Below, piece after piece: positions 14,386-22,639 of a stretch of 57,531 bases of DNA. The position numbers and the translations under genes are program-made. The stretch is taken from NCBI GenBank assembly GCA_943357745.1, contig CALRGN010000001.1:1-57531 (forward strand), read 5' to 3'. The notes under the pieces were generated by a model. That model did not search any database and was not told the origin of the DNA. It was given only the letters and a program-made list of their open reading frames with translations. The stretch comes from Candidatus Uhrbacteria bacterium. Its GTDB lineage: Bacteria > Patescibacteriota > Patescibacteriia > UBA9934. Positions within the stretch are counted from its first letter, which is position 1. Every line of letters starts with the position of its first letter.

Positions 14386-15972
14386 TTATAAATCACCTCG
14401 GCGCCAAATCAAACTCGCCAAAATCAATTCTAAATCTCCAACCTTTTCTCCTTCTGCCGCCAATGTTAACGCCGGTAAATTAAAACGCCCCGGAAAACCA
14501 TATTCAACTTGAATAATTTTCCCCTGCTCCACTTTCCACCAAGTAAAAACCGTACCAGCCGCTGTTTCTATCCCCGCCGCCGTTTCGCCACTAAGTGATC
14601 GCAATTTTTCCAAAACAGATTTGTCCCACGGTTCAGTTGGTTTTATCACTACCAGATTCTCTCTAATCAATCTTAATCCGTCCTTGATTTCATCAATCAT
14701 GATTTCAACTCTTGCTACTACATCTCCGTTTGTCCTGATAAAACGATGTGGCTTAATCACCGCAAACCCCACCTGAAGATCATCTCTCCTCGTATCAAAA
14801 TCTAAACCAACGGCCTTAGCAATCGGGCCCATTAAATTATATTCTAGCGCCTCAACTCTAGTAATAGATCCCAAGCCTTCTAATCTATCCTGCACCACTT
14901 CTCTATACCAACCCAACTTCAACAATCTATTAAAATCAACTTCGAATTCCTTCAATTTAACTTTAATCATTTTTAGTTCAGTTTCACCAACCGTAATATT
15001 CACCCCAAAAATAATTAGTGCCCCCAAACCAAATCTATTCCCACAAATTAAAAATAGCAGTTGTCTAATTGTTTCTATTAATTCTAGAGCTAATGCCACT
15101 AAACTAAAGATCCCCAGTGCCCGATAAATTTCCATAATCACCTCAAGAAATCTAGTTAGCCGTTCTAATTCCAAAAGAATCACTCGCCAGGCAATGGCAT
15201 CCCCAGATAGAAAATCCCTTTTCTCTATCAGTTGATTTTCAAACAATCTCTCCCACGCCTGGACAGTTGAAAGCGCCAAACTAATCGCCCGCAGTGGCTG
15301 TCTTCTCCCCTGAACTGCGAGCGCCTTATCTAACGACATGCCAATTATCAGCTCCTCTCTTTCTCTCGTCGGCAAATGTTGATCAAGTTTAACCGCTAAT
15401 ATTCTCCCACGGTTCCTCTGCAAAGGAACTTGTCCGTAATCTCTCCAAGGCGGATAACTCTCCAAACTTCTTTCTACCGGAACATTAGGAAACCGCTCTC
15501 CCAACAACTTGGGCCACATTCCAATTGGGTTAATCTCTAATCGATTTGCAACCGCCCGCTCCTCCCACCACGCCCCGGGAGAAACAGTAAAAATTCCTTC
15601 ATAACTCTGTCCCGATATCACCAAACTAGATAGTTTCACCAATTCGCCTGTCTCCGGATACAACAATAATACCGATAAGGTGCCCGTCGGCGCTTCTGTA
15701 AAGATTTTGACCAACTTCAATCCCCCTCCGGTCAATCCCCCACCGGTCAACCCCCCACCGGACCTGCCACCACCAGCCAGTCCGCTGACAGTAAGTCCGC
15801 CACCGATCAATTCACCGCCCACCAAACCACCATCGGTCAAAGTTCTACAATTAATCAATTCATCAACAACCTTGGTAAGTTTTGAAATTAAAACCTCCCC
15901 CACCCAAAATCCATTAGACCTAGAGGTAATTGTAACCCCAGTAAGAATTTGAATCAGTTCTGATACATTCAT
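14386..15972 (-). CDS. Highly divergent NuoC-NuoD fusion-like protein (complex I 30-kDa plus 49-kDa / group-4 hydrogenase large-subunit-like) lacking NiFe or quinone-site cysteines
   Basis: SPGAWWEERA resembles NuoC PAANWYEREA. WRVILLELERLTRFL, ICGNRFGLGALIIFGV, GLGSITRVEALEYNLMGPIAKAVGLDFDTRR, GDVVARVEIMIDEIKDGLRLIRENL and the C-terminal FPGRFNLPALT...DLELILASL parallel Thermus Nqo4 / E. coli NuoD blocks. Only 2 Cys in the protein. The ATG at 15972 forms an ATGA overlap with the upstream stop. Confidence 0.7.
   Translation of the reverse strand: MNVSELIQILTGVTITSRSNGFWVGEVLISKLTKVVDELINCRTLTDGGLVGGELIGGGLTVSGLAGGGRSGGGLTGGGLTGGGLKLVKIFTEAPTGTLSVLLLYPETGELVKLSSLVISGQSYEGIFTVSPGAWWEERAVANRLEINPIGMWPKLLGERFPNVPVERSLESYPPWRDYGQVPLQRNRGRILAVKLDQHLPTREREELIIGMSLDKALAVQGRRQPLRAISLALSTVQAWERLFENQLIEKRDFLSGDAIAWRVILLELERLTRFLEVIMEIYRALGIFSLVALALELIETIRQLLFLICGNRFGLGALIIFGVNITVGETELKMIKVKLKEFEVDFNRLLKLGWYREVVQDRLEGLGSITRVEALEYNLMGPIAKAVGLDFDTRRDDLQVGFAVIKPHRFIRTNGDVVARVEIMIDEIKDGLRLIRENLVVIKPTEPWDKSVLEKLRSLSGETAAGIETAAGTVFTWWKVEQGKIIQVEYGFPGRFNLPALTLAAEGEKVGDLELILASLIWRRGDL
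15718..15834 (-). repeat. In-frame G+C-rich tandem repeat encoding DGGLVGGELIGGGLTVSGLAGGGRSGGGLTGGGLTGGGL in the NuoC-like N-terminus
   Basis: Repeating ccaccggtcaa / cccccaccgg units on the plus strand and a GGGLT periodicity in the translation. Confidence 0.85.
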
Positions 15973-17390
15973 AGTCTCCACCACTCACTTGTGGTTAATG
16001 CCCCCATCAACCCAAAATCAAACCCGATCAAAAGCCAAAAAATAAAGGCATAAATTTTATTGGTTGATCTATCCTCATTGAATGATAGATGTTTCAGAGA
16101 TTTTTTTGGCGATTTATTTTTTGTAATCTCCCTAAACCAAGCCAGCAAAGATAATCTTAAAAAGTATAGCCAAATAATGGTCCAGATCCAAACCGCCCCA
16201 GCCGAAATTGTAATTCCGGTACCCCACCAAAGAATAATAATTAATCCTAGCAATGATCCTGGTAGGCCTAATTTACACCAAAGATAGGCGGTGCGCATTC
16301 TAGGATACTGCTTAGGATTATCAATCTTTACCAAAGAAATACCGGATTTAATCCAAAACCAATAAGCACCAATCAGTAACCATTCATGAAAGAAAATCAG
16401 AATCACAATTGGTGAAACCGCTCCGGTAATCAGAGCAAAGAGTGGCGCTAGCCCTAAACTAAGTGAGGCAATTCTAAGATCTAATCCGTAAAAGTTATCA
16501 CCATAAAAAATCTCTTCGCCCAAAACGGTTTTTTTGGTTTTATAATTGCGCCACGGTACTATGATGGTTACGGATAAAAATATTAGAAATGTGACCAGCG
16601 CAATAACTCTTAGGTGATCGGTGGGCCAACCCAGACTTCCTAACTTGGTCATTATTGCTAGCCACCAACTTATTAATGAGTATTGTAACCAAATCGGGAT
16701 AATAATTGAAATCCAGCGATTACTCCTTATCACACCAATTTCACTCCAAGTTGTGTATGGCCACCAGCCTAATTCCAACAAGATTCCTACCGATATTAAG
16801 ATCCAGGAAAGATCATTGGACCAAACTCCACCCAATGGCCAATAGATCGTCATCAATCCACCGCCAAGACACAAAAAAGCTACCATGTGCAATTTAAATG
16901 CTCGCCAAACAACCGCCATATCCATACCATCTCCGCCACGCGCGATCCCTTCCAAGCCACAGATAGCAATCAGTTGAACCAATAGAAATTTTGCAAGATC
17001 ATTTTCCAAAAAAGAACTAGTAATTAACCCGATTATCAAGACAAGCCAAATTAATTTTTCTCCCGTCATTTCACTATTCAATAATAACTTGCTTTGATAT
17101 TTGTTTGGATTAGAGACTGCCACTGATCCAATCATAGACAATCCAATCGCCACGAGCAGGAAGGCATAATCCCAACCATCTAAATTGATCTCTGGTAGAT
17201 TAAGTAACGTTGATAAAATAAATCTCCCCTCACCACTCCAAATAGCCACTCCAAGCTCAATCCCAATCAACAGCAACCCCACTTCCACCAAAAAAAGCCA
17301 CGGAATCCTGGCCGCTTTAACAGCGGGCAACGGCAACAGTCCCCAGACAATCGCCAGGAACAATAAAATTAAACCAAATATCATTAACAT
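15969..17390 (-). CDS. Polytopic membrane protein, possibly NuoL/M/N-MrpD antiporter-like subunit
   Basis: 473 aa with at least 12 predicted TM segments. A mid-membrane Glu (LIAICGLEGIA), GWWPYTTW and KLGLPGS stretches are reminiscent of the proton-conducting transporter family. Operon context. Confidence 0.4.
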   Translation of the reverse strand: MLMIFGLILLFLAIVWGLLPLPAVKAARIPWLFLVEVGLLLIGIELGVAIWSGEGRFILSTLLNLPEINLDGWDYAFLLVAIGLSMIGSVAVSNPNKYQSKLLLNSEMTGEKLIWLVLIIGLITSSFLENDLAKFLLVQLIAICGLEGIARGGDGMDMAVVWRAFKLHMVAFLCLGGGLMTIYWPLGGVWSNDLSWILISVGILLELGWWPYTTWSEIGVIRSNRWISIIIPIWLQYSLISWWLAIMTKLGSLGWPTDHLRVIALVTFLIFLSVTIIVPWRNYKTKKTVLGEEIFYGDNFYGLDLRIASLSLGLAPLFALITGAVSPIVILIFFHEWLLIGAYWFWIKSGISLVKIDNPKQYPRMRTAYLWCKLGLPGSLLGLIIILWWGTGITISAGAVWIWTIIWLYFLRLSLLAWFREITKNKSPKKSLKHLSFNEDRSTNKIYAFIFWLLIGFDFGLMGALTTSEWWRL

Positions 17391-17391
17391 A

Positions 17392-18033
17392 TTAGCGATC
17401 TATTTCAATTTCCGGATTAACGGAATCATAATTTAATTGATAGTGACAAATAGCATTCCAAAGCAACCACCAATGAATCAAACCTATCACTAATATGATC
17501 ATTTGCAAATAGTCTGATTCAGTTGATTTTAATCCAATGATCCCCACCAAACCCAACCAAAATACGCCAAACCCAATCCCCGCCTCTGCTCCGCGCCCCA
17601 CATAAAATCTTACCAACCCCACTACCGTAGCCAGGCTCGCCACCAACCACCACCAGTCAAAAAATTCTAAATTTTCTTTTGGAATTGACAACCCGTAGTA
17701 TCCAATCATCACCCCAATTAGAACAATTATAAATCGTTCCTCAAAATGTCGTTTGAATTGAGTTCTATATTTGATCAACCTTTTACCCCGTTTATCGTAG
17801 AATAGCTTGTAAAGGACGGTTATGCCCCAAATTAGATAGCATCCAAACATCAACACCATATTTAACCTTCCCTCGGTATTGATCACTTGCCAAATACCAA
17901 GAATTACAATCAAAGAGAGCAAACTATTTCCAAGCGGGATCGCCCTAGTCTTACTCATGAAGGAAAAGAGAAAAATGATTCCAACTACCGCTAACCACTC
18001 TCCATTGAATCCATAAAAAATTTCGTTTAGCAT
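17392..18033 (-). CDS. Small polytopic membrane protein of the Nuo-like operon
   Basis: 213 aa with about 6 TM segments, 1 nt from the next gene. No motif recognised. Confidence 0.35.
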   Translation of the reverse strand: MLNEIFYGFNGEWLAVVGIIFLFSFMSKTRAIPLGNSLLSLIVILGIWQVINTEGRLNMVLMFGCYLIWGITVLYKLFYDKRGKRLIKYRTQFKRHFEERFIIVLIGVMIGYYGLSIPKENLEFFDWWWLVASLATVVGLVRFYVGRGAEAGIGFGVFWLGLVGIIGLKSTESDYLQMIILVIGLIHWWLLWNAICHYQLNYDSVNPEIEIDR

Positions 18034-18068
18034 ATATTTTGCTTATATTCAGCCTACAGCCTTAATCT

Positions 18069-18953
18069 TTAATAAAAATTTGATAACCAAACCACTAGAG
18101 CTAATGTTTCCATCAGAGCAACAAATCCCAAGTACCGCCACAAAAAACCGGTATCGCGTTTGCAAGTAATTAATTCAAAAATTGCAAATATGAGCAGACC
18201 CAAACCTCCGGAAATAATAAGAGCGGATTGGCTCAGCCAATTGAGCTGACTGAGTATTAGAGAAATAAACAGATACCCGGCCAATGTGATCTGCATCCAC
18301 TCCCCCCACACTTGGCCACAGATTAACCAATTATAATCTTCTGAAATATGGTTGTCTAAAAAAAAGTCTTGCCGTTTTCTAAAGGGCGAACTGCCTAATA
18401 CAATTGGTAATAGAATCGCTCCAGAAATCCCAAGCAGAATTAAAGCGGTGCTTGTTTCCTGACTAAAGTCTGTTTGTATGATGGCGCCCCAATCACCAGA
18501 GACAAATAGGGATAGTAACCAAGCTCCAAAAAACCAGAACGGGGAGCTAACCCAAAACCGGAGCGATTGCTCATAATTATCATCCTTGATAAATTCCCCG
18601 GCTCGTAAAAGATTACTCCCCAGCATAAGTACCCACGCTAACCACCACCAACCAACCAAAGTCCAATAATCACCCCCAGGTAAAGCCGTATAATCCCAGT
18701 TATACCACGGTAGGCTTAAGAAAATTATAATTAAAGCTAAATTAGCTAAAATTATCATCCCGCCACTTACTCTCTCTTTTAGTGATAACCCTTTCCAACT
18801 AACAGTAATATTAAGGCTCCATCTGATTTGACTAAAACCGTGCCAAAGCAAATCGTGCAATAATTTACCAAATAACCCCACCGTAAAGACAATAAAAAGC
18901 CAGCCCAGCAATTGAACACTCCCAAGCACCAGCCACTTTAATACTTCAACCAT
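18069..18953 (-). CDS. Polytopic membrane protein, weakly NuoH/HycD-like
   Basis: SSPFRKRQDFFLDNHISEDYNWLICGQVWGEWMQITLAGYLFISLIL loosely parallels Nqo8 [37 protein letters not shown]. Start placed at the internal Met (18953). The ORF track start is 19004. Confidence 0.3.
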   Translation of the reverse strand: MVEVLKWLVLGSVQLLGWLFIVFTVGLFGKLLHDLLWHGFSQIRWSLNITVSWKGLSLKERVSGGMIILANLALIIIFLSLPWYNWDYTALPGGDYWTLVGWWWLAWVLMLGSNLLRAGEFIKDDNYEQSLRFWVSSPFWFFGAWLLSLFVSGDWGAIIQTDFSQETSTALILLGISGAILLPIVLGSSPFRKRQDFFLDNHISEDYNWLICGQVWGEWMQITLAGYLFISLILSQLNWLSQSALIISGGLGLLIFAIFELITCKRDTGFLWRYLGFVALMETLALVVWLSNFY

Positions 18954-20506
18954 AAAATTCCAGCAATTATCGCGAGTAAACAATAAAAAGGGACCAACGA
19001 CCAATCAAGTTTAGCGAGAACTTTTGTGCTATGGGTTTTAAATATTTTACAAAATTTATCAAAAAAATGATAAACCTTAAAATAAATCCACCCCCCTTTA
19101 AAACCGATGGCGTTAAAATTTTCTAACCAAAGCTCATTCCTTCCTGATTTCACTCCAATTAGTCCAAGATACCAGCCACCTAACATCCCAATTCCAAGTA
19201 GATACACCAATAATTGGCACCAAATCAGAATTATCATCGCTACGCCAATCCCATTAATTTCAAGGACGCCATCGGCCCAACTTCTCCAAATATCATCAGA
19301 TAAAAACAAATTTAATTGAATTTGGATAATTTTCCAACTTAGAGCTGTTGGCATAAACCAAAAGAATAAAATCACCAATCCAAAACCTCCAAGGAGAGTA
19401 GCGTTGCCCTTCCGCCACCAGCTGGAACACCACTGCCCACCCATTACCGTAAAAAGAAAAATTAGACTTATCCAAAGCGACTGCCTAATTCCTGACTCCG
19501 CCAACGGATTCAAGGCGGTAGCGGATAGCATCCCTTGAATAATTACGGTATTAAAAATAAAAAGTAACATCAAATCACTCCAACTTCTAACCCCCAAGTT
19601 GCGATAGTTCCTTAAGCGAGTCAACAAAACAGCAATTCCACCAACATTTAGAACAAGCACCGTTATAAGAAAGATTGGGGTATTGGCAGGGTTTAACCAA
19701 AAAAATATAATTCTAAAAATTAGATACAAGCTGGTTAGGATCTGAAGTATGCTCACCAGGTCAAACCCCCACTCATCAACAATCGGTTCATTTTCTTTGG
19801 CAGTGGTTTTCCCCCAGTCCCGGCTGATTGTTCTAAAATAACAACCCATCAAAATAGTCCCCACCAAGCAAACATTAAACCAATTAGTGAAACCAAACAA
19901 ACCCATATCAACCACCGCCACTTCTACAAATAGTCCACCGCTAAATACGGTTACCGTTGTAAATACAATTAAGACTGTAAAAATCAGCATCCAATCTTTA
20001 CCGGGGAGGACATGTTTTTCCGTCTGGCCTGCCAGAATCGACTGTGATCTCCACTCCATGATTGCTAAACCGAATAATAATAAAGCTAACATTATTATAT
20101 TTCCAGCCAATAAAAAACTATTCATCAAACCCAAATAGATCAAAGTCCATCCCCCCGACACTCTCATTGACCCGTTGTTTTTCTCTTTCCACCTCTGAAG
20201 CTGATGGAACAAAAAACTGAGCGAACTAATCCCCAAAAAATGTCCGGCAAATCTATCCAGATGCCAGTTCATACCAAACATAACCGGATTGAAAACTCCC
20301 CATTGGTAGGGCCAAATCAAGCCATCATTCCCACCAAAAACCACTATCACAGAAACAATTATTCCTAAAACCGCACTTAGTATCACAATCCTTCCACTCC
20401 AACCTCCTCTTCGGCCGTACTCCAATCCTAACCCAAGCCACGGCAATCCTATTACTCCTATCAGCAAACAACCAAGTAATAGGTCATTCATAAATATTAA
20501 TTTCAA
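18938..20506 (-). CDS. Polytopic membrane protein, possibly NuoL/MrpA antiporter-like subunit
   Basis: 522 aa with many TM segments. WHLDRFAGHFLGISSLSFLF...LLAGNIIMLALLLFGLAIMEW resembles the N-terminal D.lS..f...WE region of Nuo L/M/N. ATGA overlap with the NuoB-like gene. Confidence 0.4.
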   Translation of the reverse strand: MKLIFMNDLLLGCLLIGVIGLPWLGLGLEYGRRGGWSGRIVILSAVLGIIVSVIVVFGGNDGLIWPYQWGVFNPVMFGMNWHLDRFAGHFLGISSLSFLFHQLQRWKEKNNGSMRVSGGWTLIYLGLMNSFLLAGNIIMLALLLFGLAIMEWRSQSILAGQTEKHVLPGKDWMLIFTVLIVFTTVTVFSGGLFVEVAVVDMGLFGFTNWFNVCLVGTILMGCYFRTISRDWGKTTAKENEPIVDEWGFDLVSILQILTSLYLIFRIIFFWLNPANTPIFLITVLVLNVGGIAVLLTRLRNYRNLGVRSWSDLMLLFIFNTVIIQGMLSATALNPLAESGIRQSLWISLIFLFTVMGGQWCSSWWRKGNATLLGGFGLVILFFWFMPTALSWKIIQIQLNLFLSDDIWRSWADGVLEINGIGVAMIILIWCQLLVYLLGIGMLGGWYLGLIGVKSGRNELWLENFNAIGFKGGWIYFKVYHFFDKFCKIFKTHSTKVLAKLDWSLVPFYCLLAIIAGILWLKY

Positions 20507-21048
20507 ACGCGTCTAATTAATTGAGCTAGTTCATTTGGGCCTTCCTCACCAATCATCCAATTTACAGGGATAAGCTTAATTTTAAAATCAGCCGATATTC
20601 CACCGATTCTTTCCTCCTCCCGCTTCACCTTAGCGGCCTCGCTTTCAGCATCCTCCATCCCCCATTTCACTTCACTCTCAATCCCAACTGGCAGATCATT
20701 GTCTGAAGGCTTGATCCAAATCACCTTCAATTCACTCTCACCGCCCCATCTACTTTTCAATCTTCCTAAAACCGCCTGCAGTTGATCCCAATCAAAACCA
20801 ACCAAAATCCAAATCTGAGCCAATTCCGGTTTAGAGACAAATTTAATGCGCTCTGGCAAATGGGCGTATTCAATTCCGTATAACGCGCGGAGTTCTTGTC
20901 CAAATGCCTCCCCACCTACTGCAATTTCCGTATAGATACAAATTCTAGCGTCTCTAAAAAAATCCGCCCAAACCTTCATTGGCCCCCGTTTTGCAATTCT
21001 CTTCCAAGCTAACCACCAAGTAAGATAGATAAGCTTCAACCAGGTCAT
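20503..21048 (-). CDS. NuoB / Nqo6 / MbhJ-like small subunit homologue lacking the [4Fe-4S] cysteine ligands
   Basis: VWADFFRDARICIYTEI, YGIEY, SKPELAQIWILVGFDWDQL, ELKVIWI and IKLIPVNWMIGEEGPNELAQLI are colinear with Nqo6 LWPATFGLACCAIEM, ...RFG, SPRQADVMIVAGRLSKKM, PKWVISM and VDVYVPGCPPRPEALIYAV. Only one Cys in 181 aa. Confidence 0.55.
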   Translation of the reverse strand: MTWLKLIYLTWWLAWKRIAKRGPMKVWADFFRDARICIYTEIAVGGEAFGQELRALYGIEYAHLPERIKFVSKPELAQIWILVGFDWDQLQAVLGRLKSRWGGESELKVIWIKPSDNDLPVGIESEVKWGMEDAESEAAKVKREEERIGGISADFKIKLIPVNWMIGEEGPNELAQLIRRV

Positions 21049-21175
21049 ATAATTTCCTGAAGTTTACAGGCTAAAAACCAATTCGGTCAACTGTATCCTC
21101 AGATTTTTTTGTCAAACCCAAACAAAACCAAAATTTTCAACAGTCCCCACCCAAGGCCTACAAGCGTTAAAATTT

Positions 21176-22639
21176 ATGCTATGCTTTAACCCTATGAATC
21201 CATCAAATACACCCCATAATTTAGATAAATCAACCAATCCTGACTCAACCCCAAAGCCAGGGGAATCTCCTTCCAACCGCGTCCCTTCAACTCCAATCGC
21301 GCCCTCCACTCCATTAAAAACCACCCCCCTTTCTATGGCCGAAAAAAATCCCGGGCTGTTGATTGCCAGTATTCTAGGAGTGGTTTTGCTAGCATTAGTC
21401 ACCATGCTCACCATTAACATTAGCAAGAATGTTAATAGCAATGATGGCGATACTGTTGATCCTCGGCAAACAAATAATCAAATCAGACTCAACACCAACA
21501 ATGACCGCGATGCCAGTCAATCCAGCACCAAAACCAGCACCGATAAAAACAAATTTCAAGATCCCGATCAAAATTCCGTCAGTCCCAAATCTTTGAGCGG
21601 TGCGCTTATCAAAAGAACAGTGCCCAATGCTCAATCATCAAAAGCGATTTGCAACGACGGTACTGATTACACCTATTACACTCGCCCGGGGAGTCCGGAA
21701 AATTCCGATAGATGGATTGTGTATTTTCAAGGTGGCGCGGCTTGCAGTTCTGTGGACGCTTGCACTTCCCGTGCCGAGGAAGATCCTGATCTTATTACGG
21801 CGGACACTCAGGCTAGTCGTCTCTCAGACGGAATCCTTTCCAGGGACGAGTCTCATAACCCGGATTTCAATGATTGGAGCCATGTCTTTCTCCCCTATTG
21901 CAGTTCAGATACATGGGCAGGTGATACCACCCACCAAATTGCCAGCGACACTTGGTATTTCTACGGCCACCATATAGTTACAGCCGTGGTGGACGAACTT
22001 TTAAACGGGGTAGGCGACATGCCCAAGTTAAGTGATTCTACTGATCTGATGGTGGTGGGCAGTTCAGCTGGAGGTGGTGGTGTTCAGCTGAATTTAGATC
22101 GAATCTCTGAAACCGTCCATGCTGTTGATTCAGCTGTCAGGATTACCGGCGTACTCGATAGCGTTTGGGGTTTCCTCGTTGAACCATACGCTAGTCGAGA
22201 AGATGCTTATGGAAATGTGCTGTCAGAAGGAGAAGCGATCGAATTCCACAACACCATTGGCGATCAAAGTTGTGAAGCCGCCTCTTCTGCCAACGATGAC
22301 GGCTGTAAAAGTACTGACACCCTGTTGCCGTACTTGAGTACTCCCGTTTTTATTTATATCGATCAGCGGGATAGTTTAAAACTTTCCCGAGTGGGGATTG
22401 ATAATATGGGTAAGGATCCAGCTCAACGTGCCTATTGGGAGGAAACATGGCAACCAAATTTACTCGCTTCGCTTGAAGGTCTTACTGGACTTTTTGCACC
22501 AGTGATCGGAAAGCATACATCCTTAACCAGCGATCGTTTCTACACCGTAAAAATAGACGGCCTTAACTTTGCTGATGTGTTAGGCAACTGGTATTTTGAT
22601 CGATCAGGCCCCAAATCTGTCATTGCAGAACAACCTTAA
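21176..22639 (+). CDS. Membrane-anchored pectin acetylesterase / Notum-like (PAE family) carbohydrate esterase
   Basis: CNDGTDYTYY..WIVYFQGGAACSS, GILS...NPDF.DWSHVFLPYCSSDTWAGD, YFYGHHIV and GSSAGGGG (GxSxG) are colinear with plant PAE motifs. A Pro/Ser/Thr-rich N-terminal region is followed by one TM. The true start is uncertain (21176, 21194 or 21335). Confidence 0.6.
   Translation: MLCFNPMNPSNTPHNLDKSTNPDSTPKPGESPSNRVPSTPIAPSTPLKTTPLSMAEKNPGLLIASILGVVLLALVTMLTINISKNVNSNDGDTVDPRQTNNQIRLNTNNDRDASQSSTKTSTDKNKFQDPDQNSVSPKSLSGALIKRTVPNAQSSKAICNDGTDYTYYTRPGSPENSDRWIVYFQGGAACSSVDACTSRAEEDPDLITADTQASRLSDGILSRDESHNPDFNDWSHVFLPYCSSDTWAGDTTHQIASDTWYFYGHHIVTAVVDELLNGVGDMPKLSDSTDLMVVGSSAGGGGVQLNLDRISETVHAVDSAVRITGVLDSVWGFLVEPYASREDAYGNVLSEGEAIEFHNTIGDQSCEAASSANDDGCKSTDTLLPYLSTPVFIYIDQRDSLKLSRVGIDNMGKDPAQRAYWEETWQPNLLASLEGLTGLFAPVIGKHTSLTSDRFYTVKIDGLNFADVLGNWYFDRSGPKSVIAEQP

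Follow-up and report, generated by a model that had tools for sequence, protein, structure and literature searches.

A single-cysteine protein in the small-subunit slot of an Ehr-type operon from Candidatus Uhrbacteria: a probable NuoB-type subunit without cluster ligands

Can a subunit of the complex I type stay in its operon after every ligand of its iron-sulfur (Fe-S) cluster has gone? This question is raised by a 181-residue open reading frame (ORF) on the minus strand (20503-21048, ATG to TGA) of a 57,531-nucleotide stretch of Candidatus Uhrbacteria DNA (contig CALRGN010000001.1 of assembly GCA_943357745.1, forward strand), referred to here as the window. An earlier note, made from the DNA letters alone, had taken the encoded protein for a NuoB-like subunit in which the ligands of cluster N2 are replaced and electron transfer is lost. 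The ORF stands in the small-subunit (NuoB/HycG/MbhJ) slot of its operon and encodes no Fe-S ligand set. The reading that we favour, and hold to be rather likely, is that it encodes a former NuoB-type subunit, and that its operon is a cofactor-free, probably non-redox and extremely diverged derivative of an energy-converting-hydrogenase-related (Ehr) complex.

The small ORF is the first of six co-directional and tightly packed genes, which encode proteins of 181, 517-522, 294-311, 213, 473 and 528-532 residues. In the syntenic relatives the order is a PF01058 protein (168 residues), a NuoL-like protein (690-702), a PF00146 NuoH-like protein (316), a protein of 213-218 residues, a PF00361 protein (486) and a NuoCD protein (525); the window repeats this order, with no more than 13 residues of difference in four of the six gene sizes. 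What stands first in the syntenic operons is a gene for a canonical four-cysteine PF01058 protein (CxxC...C...C), whose matches are at about 1e-38 with MbhJ and HycG and at about 1e-27 with NuoB/NDUFS7. The same gene list is found in the rv0082-rv0087 operon of M. tuberculosis (PMC6901956). Six-gene Ehr complexes of this kind, known from M. tuberculosis, many Actinomycetota, Acidobacteriota and metagenome-assembled genomes (MAGs) of Rokubacteria, share with the window not only the order and near-identical gene sizes but also a fused NuoC-NuoD/HycE-like subunit devoid of NiFe-ligand cysteines and the absence of a NuoI/HycF-like ferredoxin gene. The small ORF thus fills the PF01058 slot of a six-gene Ehr-type operon.

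The last gene of the operon (14386-15984, minus strand) encodes the fused NuoC-NuoD/HycE-like large subunit of 528-532 residues, which matches PF00346 at E=4e-20. It was recognized by an Ehr profile of 88 relatives at E=5.5e-74 and by hhalign at 4.6e-46. When its AlphaFold2 (AF2) model, built from a 25-sequence alignment (predicted local distance difference test score, pLDDT, 74; predicted template modelling score 0.77), was searched with Foldseek, the best match was E. coli HycE (7z0s_E, E=7.5e-19, template modelling score 0.68), and the fused NuoCD proteins of E. coli and Aquifex were also matched. Profile matches and model together make it certain that the large subunit is of NuoC-NuoD/HycE type and keeps the fold. 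Its relatives, 24-32% identical to it, are without the cysteines of both NiFe motifs and read 'SGDT.VGHA' in place of RxCGxCxxxH and 'DFPLCNKSF' in place of DPCxxCxxR, a replacement which by its motifs is of Ehr type. The large subunit of the window likewise has no cysteine at either NiFe motif position, and the two cysteines that it contains are both outside the active-site motifs. Among 101 columns conserved at 90% or above in 24 relatives it keeps 35, the other 66 being changed or deleted; 17 of the 101 fall inside a deletion which removes the N-terminal 'VGPVHAG.IEPGHF...GE' block (28 columns) and which would presumably include the region of the quinone-site histidine of complex I. A Gly-rich insertion of the NuoC-like domain (residues ~50-95) was modelled at a pLDDT below 50. 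It carries a 15-nucleotide tandem repeat encoding GGGLT units (15717-15761, minus strand), present in three copies in the window and in two in the sister strain L006, as an in-frame copy-number polymorphism.

The small protein contains one cysteine (C37), as the earlier note had counted, and one histidine (H63). The codon of C37 (TGT, 20938-20940, minus strand) lies upstream of the ligand positions, and the model places the residue in a predicted beta-strand (36-39). Because only one cysteine and one histidine are available, no cubane site can be drawn on the sequence under any alignment, and the protein is unable to hold a [4Fe-4S] cluster. The count as such is average, since the cysteine content of this genome (0.74%) gives an expectation of 1.3 per 181 residues; it would be remarkable only for a descendant of a NuoB-type subunit. 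No frameshift or sequencing error can be masking a cysteine-containing version, a risk which the earlier note had named, because the same protein and a 97%-identical allele recur on independent contigs: the identical protein was found on six contigs and the allele on four, from other Hainich H51 groundwater samples, the allele being NCBI MEK7132032.1, labelled 'Patescibacteria group bacterium' (P0001 in our set). The remaining five frames of 20503-21048 contain 5-20 stops each with no NuoB-like signal, and when all six frames across the window were searched with the small-subunit profile, no hidden or frameshifted canonical NuoB came up. An AGGA-type ribosome-binding site (Shine-Dalgarno) lies 6-11 nucleotides 5' of the start codon. 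The two alleles differ at six residues, all within residues 123-181 (20503-20682 of the window); residues 1-122 are identical between them.

The operon as a whole is under purifying selection. In a comparison with L006 none of the six ORFs is interrupted, identities are 96.7-99.1%, and the pooled Nei-Gojobori ratio of non-synonymous to synonymous divergence (dN/dS) is 0.17 (109 substitutions, 68 synonymous and 41 non-synonymous), with values of 0.10-0.19 for the five larger genes.

Descent of the small ORF from a NuoB/HycG/MbhJ-type small subunit appears quite probable to us, mostly because of synteny. Slot profiles were built for all six operon positions from 88 loci, the small-subunit profile comprising 77 distinct Ehr sequences. 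With this profile the 181-residue protein came out on top of the 181 ORFs of the window (2.1 bits, E=1.1), and its score was reached by 14 global and 11 local shuffles out of 5000 each, and by 4 of 1000 window-20 shuffles. Our own gapped alignment gave 18.7 bits as against 12.0 +/- 1.8 for shuffles, a score reached by none of 80 natural decoy fragments from the window. The only NuoB-type segment above chance spans residues 43-85, AVGGEAFGQELRALYGIEYAHLPERIKFVSKPELAQIWILVGF (20794-20922, minus strand), which aligns as a single ungapped block with profile positions 50-92 and surrounds FVSKPELAQIWILVG (shuffle p about 0.002-0.04). This block is identical in the two alleles. It covers the most conserved motif of the small-subunit family, and the same register was obtained whether the profile was limited to the 16 sequences of type a (p=0.04) or to the 61 of type b (p=0.002). 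We likened this 43-residue stretch, with its alternating strand and helix pattern, to the alpha1-to-beta2 core of PF01058, 'FV.sP..A....v.G'. With this anchor, G46 and F49 take the places of the CxxC ligands, and the four ligand columns together correspond to G46, F49, about S115/D116 and about E169; in the reference set, 72-77 of the 77 Ehr small subunits have cysteine at each ligand column.

The earlier note had arrived at NuoB by a different alignment. The four blocks on which it relied are indeed present in the order given (residues 26-42, 72-85, 106-117 and 157-178), but the spacing, said to be the same as in Nqo6, does not agree: the anchor at residues 43-85 shifts the N-terminal ligands 11-13 residues downstream of R35-I36-C37, and the fourth block can be placed only with an insertion of ~20 residues, which corresponds to the acidic stretch at residues 130-150, between the third and fourth blocks. 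The assignment of the tandem cysteine ligands to R35-I36-C37 was rejected, the sole supported block placing CxxC on G46/F49. The third block proved co-linear within two residues, while its sequence is no better than chance (p=0.95). The claim that electron transfer is lost agrees with the missing cluster ligands; the loss is, however, not a peculiarity of one subunit, the whole module being without cofactor sites. As for the NuoB-like identity itself, the family and structure checks that the earlier note had proposed gave no PF01058 match and no structural match, an outcome which by that note's own standard would refute it, while the operon slot and a weak profile signal speak for it; the core idea survives because of evidence which that note did not use, namely the operon slot and the profile rank.

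In length and company the small protein resembles NuoB/Nqo6/NDUFS7, HycG and MbhJ of the PF01058 family, which have 160-190 residues and a NuoD/HycE-like operon partner. It differs from them in the missing ligands, in the want of a significant hidden Markov model (HMM) or fold match, in the ~20 extra acidic residues before the last strand and in a Trp-rich N-terminal helix. This amphipathic helix, predicted at residues 3-21 in a single-sequence AF2 model of low confidence (pLDDT 52.9), lies in residues 1-22, MTWLKLIYLTWWLAWKRIAKRG (20983-21048, minus strand); hydropathy analysis gave no transmembrane-helix call for it, and it may lie at the membrane interface. The model further predicts a strand, a helix at 46-57, a strand at 78-83, a helix at 87-101, a strand at 106-113 and a C-terminal helix. 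When anchored on residues 43-85, this succession is compatible with the order of strands and helices in the flavodoxin-like alpha/beta fold of NuoB, a generic pattern in a model of low confidence.

Several results weigh against a NuoB-type origin of the small ORF and an Ehr origin of its operon. The small protein matched no Pfam family, PF01058 included, at E<=10, no NCBIfam family, and no PDB sequence at E<=10 when used either as a single sequence or as a two-sequence profile. A full HMMER search of 1.8 billion representatives returned only the 97% allele and one spurious match, and a word-indexed search of 5.8 billion proteins returned the allele alone. Foldseek searches of the PDB with the pLDDT 52.9 model gave no match at E<=0.001 and no NuoB. 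With hhalign, the comparison to the profile of 77 Ehr small subunits came out at P=0.088. The best natural decoy reached 17.8 bits, close to the 18.7 bits of the real alignment, and the first, third and fourth blocks of the earlier note, tested separately against shuffles, gave p=0.49, 0.95 and 0.22. No intermediates from Patescibacteria were present among the matches listed in the full-length, insert-free, genome and JGI metagenome searches with the large subunit. The four membrane proteins of the operon (15969-20506) matched no Pfam family even at E<=10, and those of the L, X and M slots showed no significant similarity to their presumed counterparts, so the positional argument consists of gene order, size and membrane character together with one securely homologous gene. 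The small gene taken alone has a dN/dS of 0.39, on only ten differences. Two matches were discarded: the spurious HMMER match, to a 2732-residue protein, covers only the acidic stretch of the small protein, and the Foldseek matches (best F1-ATPase gamma, E=0.047) were regarded as noise from a low-confidence model.

The failed Pfam, NCBIfam, PDB, HMMER, Foldseek and hhalign comparisons, the three blocks at chance and the decoy that nearly equals the real score also make the case for non-homologous displacement, in which a lineage-specific first gene unrelated to NuoB replaced the small subunit or was recruited beside the NuoCD-like gene; the small protein is, besides, an orphan among about 15 billion proteins except for its 97% allele. 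Such a newcomer, however, would have had to enter an operon which copies the canonical one in the order, number and sizes of its six genes, to rank first among the 181 ORFs of the window, and to match the family precisely over its most conserved motif in a register consistent across two independent profile subsets. Moreover, since the drift has gone far in the large subunit and in the other slots as well, extreme divergence is the rule in this operon and is no sign of replacement. We regard displacement as rather unlikely, and the descent of the small ORF from a NuoB-type subunit as the better account. The same divergence could be read as decay, the operon no longer working and about to be lost, and the protein having no role: the cofactor ligands have gone from both peripheral subunits, 66 of the 101 conserved large-subunit columns are changed or deleted, the membrane subunits are unrecognisable, the in-frame Gly-rich repeat varies in copy number, and the small gene has its raised dN/dS. 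Against this, six long ORFs (181-532 residues), closely spaced or overlapping at their junctions, remain uninterrupted in two alleles 109 substitutions apart, the dN/dS is low both pooled and for each of the five larger genes, and the small protein shows no change between the alleles over its first 122 residues. Genomes of the candidate phyla radiation (CPR) are small, and dead genes are expected to be shed from them. A decaying relic is in our judgement improbable.

It may also be asked whether electron transfer persists by way of a redox cofactor that is held by residues other than cysteine or by ligands from a neighbouring subunit. Fe-S clusters with histidine, aspartate or serine ligands exist in other proteins, and nothing more direct speaks for this explanation here. 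The one cysteine and the one histidine of the small protein are both off the ligand columns, the two cysteines of the large subunit are outside the active-site motifs, the operon encodes no ferredoxin-like subunit, and no donor or acceptor module is encoded near it. A retained cofactor is, on these grounds, hardly credible.

Under the favoured reading of a cofactor-free Ehr derivative, the operon would derive from an Ehr complex of the M. tuberculosis rv0082-rv0087 type. None of the four ligands of the proximal [4Fe-4S] cluster would be left in its small subunit, where a 43-residue remnant of the core, with helix alpha1 and the 'FVASPRHAD...VTG' strand, is all that can still be recognised; its large subunit keeps the HycE/NuoCD fold, without NiFe ligands and with a conserved N-terminal block deleted. 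The peripheral module would then have no evident redox cofactor, and it could not transfer electrons because it has no cluster ligands, no NiFe ligands and no ferredoxin-like subunit. The small protein may have a structural part, as a bridge of the NuoB kind between the large subunit and the NuoH-like membrane subunit, its Trp-rich N-terminal helix resting on the surface of the membrane. Selection would keep the complex for a non-redox job, of which secondary, Mrp-like ion translocation seems the most plausible and, by analogy, is the obvious candidate; a purely structural function at the membrane may be the alternative. The boldest form of the proposal, namely that in an ultra-small cell of the Patescibacteria a complete Ehr-type complex, with neither NiFe site nor proximal [4Fe-4S] cluster nor ferredoxin subunit and with no recognisable canonical antiporter signature, is kept by purifying selection for a purely non-redox function in ion transport or membrane architecture, for instance, is put forward tentatively, and we lean slightly towards doubt.

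Mrp cation/proton antiporters are a multi-subunit module that is related to the membrane arm of complex I and works without a redox cofactor. They offer a functional analogy for a cofactor-free Ehr complex; Mrp, however, has no NuoB/NuoD-like peripheral subunits, and homology of the membrane proteins of the window to antiporter subunits is not demonstrable. BLASTP of the L-slot against the M-slot protein, in search of antiporter-like paralogy, gave nothing significant. Respiratory complex I/NDH-1 is marked by a tandem-cysteine N2 cluster in NuoB, the quinone-site Tyr/His of NuoD, NuoA/J/K/I and an electron-input module, whereas the small protein has no cysteine pair and no gene for NuoI, NuoE, NuoF or NuoG was found in the operon or the window. 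In canonical Ehr complexes the first gene is a clear four-cysteine PF01058 member and the membrane subunits match PF00146 and PF00361, while in the window none of the five corresponding proteins matches a family; the large subunit has lost one further conserved block, and the small protein is without ligands.

Part of this picture is known. Large subunits of Ehr complexes without NiFe ligands are described in earlier papers (PMC7304191, PMC6349859, PMC4758237). For CPR bacteria, Jaffe et al. 2020 (PMC7304191) describe group-4-related Ehr large subunits that are without metal-binding cysteines and, as these authors conclude, are probably unable to interact with H2; the host (Patescibacteria/CPR) and the cysteine-less large subunit are as in the window. 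In the main text of that paper and the supplementary passages searched, small subunits are treated only for the group 3b enzymes, and nothing was found on the small or membrane subunits of Ehr. What appears to be new is an Ehr small-subunit slot without cluster ligands. In the literature searched, no Ehr small subunit devoid of its cluster was found described; the search did not cover the original description of Ehr (Marreiros et al. 2013) and so is not proof of absence. The finding is limited to one lineage, represented by two alleles, and to a protein whose fold is unproven.

Cluster loss in this family appears to have a precedent. A locus in the Planctomycetota MAG BP6.bin28 (L088:4258-5397, JAJXXL010000299.1) encodes a HycF-HycG fusion in an Ehr-type operon, whose small subunit has S/C/E/W at the four ligand columns, with the motifs 'GGSGACE', 'VGAEAISGG' and 'PGWPPHP', the only such case among the 77 distinct sequences. 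Three of the four proximal ligands are thus lost, which likens it to the small protein of the window. Unlike the latter it is obviously of PF01058 type, close to its Planctomycetota neighbours, and retains an eight-cysteine ferredoxin domain; its loss seems recent and local, while that of the window is part of a general erosion. From its sequence it looks like an independent and recent cluster loss, and as such is an independent precedent indicating that the cluster can be lost in the Ehr small-subunit family.

In every member of the superfamily of complex I, group 4 hydrogenases and Ehr that has been characterised, a redox reaction at the NuoB-NuoD interface is believed to be coupled to ion movement. 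If the favoured reading holds, the peripheral 'adaptor' module can be retained for a non-redox purpose, the complex would be a naturally 'redox-dead' control against which ideas about the gating of the membrane arm by this module can be set, and it would add to the picture of CPR bacteria, with their minimal energy metabolism, as repurposing inherited machinery. HMM-based annotation picks up a single gene of the six, so that standard metabolic reconstructions of CPR genomes overlook operons of this kind.

Relatives were sought with the large subunit in 185,579 species genomes, which gave at least 80 loci, all of those listed being non-CPR; a scan of JGI metagenomes returned only the same Hainich contig. 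The Ehr large subunits listed (L009-L088) fall in two layouts, with the small subunit either five genes upstream, as in the rv0082-87 type, or immediately downstream, and both layouts are present in several genomes (L011, L016 and L080). The downstream type of small subunit is longer (250-380 residues), with a ferredoxin-like fusion in the one case inspected, L088. A compact locus on a Logan contig of ERR14788555 (L004:9136-12969) contains a 126-residue gene product, a 137-residue PF01058 protein, a divergent large subunit (510 residues, PF00346 only), a NuoH-like gene and a ferredoxin, with a Ni-insertion (LarC-like) gene and genes of Fe-S assembly in its neighbourhood.

Between the small and the large subunit, all on the minus strand, the operon encodes four membrane proteins, each polytopic by hydropathy. 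The protein of the NuoL-like slot (18938-20506, 517-522 residues) matches no family and was placed by hydropathy and synteny; it shows a weak co-linear profile match at residues 77-142 and keeps 'HLDRF..FL' where its presumed family has 'lrlDalsalfll'. The NuoH/HycD-like slot (18069-19004, 294-311 residues; relatives 316) was likewise assigned by synteny and hydropathy. The HycP-like slot (17392-18033, 213 residues; relatives 213-218), assigned by synteny, gave an NCBIfam hint of a MnhC/NuoK-like protein at E=0.065, and the protein of the NuoM/N-like (HycQ) slot (15969-17390, 473 residues; relatives 486), also assigned by synteny, keeps 'INLDGW..FLL' at the place of the same family motif. Slot-profile p values were 0.026 for H, against hydropathy-preserving shuffles, 0.19 for M, 0.65 for L and 0.48 for X. 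Membrane subunits of the same types are readily caught by Pfam in related loci; here short 'LD..fL' remnants survive.

Just 5' of the first operon gene there is a sigma-70-like promoter match, TTGACC-18-TAAACT (21061-21090, minus strand), which is a match to the consensus only, the number of such sites across the region being not above chance. A putative 109-residue ORF on the same strand (21112-21441) overlaps the predicted Pro/Ser/Thr-rich N-terminal extension of a gene of the pectin acetylesterase (PAE) family on the plus strand (21176-22639), and on sister contigs the gene callers split the region 21112-22639 differently, into a PAE of 410 or 480 residues and a 96-residue gene. The genes that flank the operon are of housekeeping kind and encode, besides the pectin-acetylesterase-like protein, Mur ligases, an AddA-like helicase-nuclease and MreBC.

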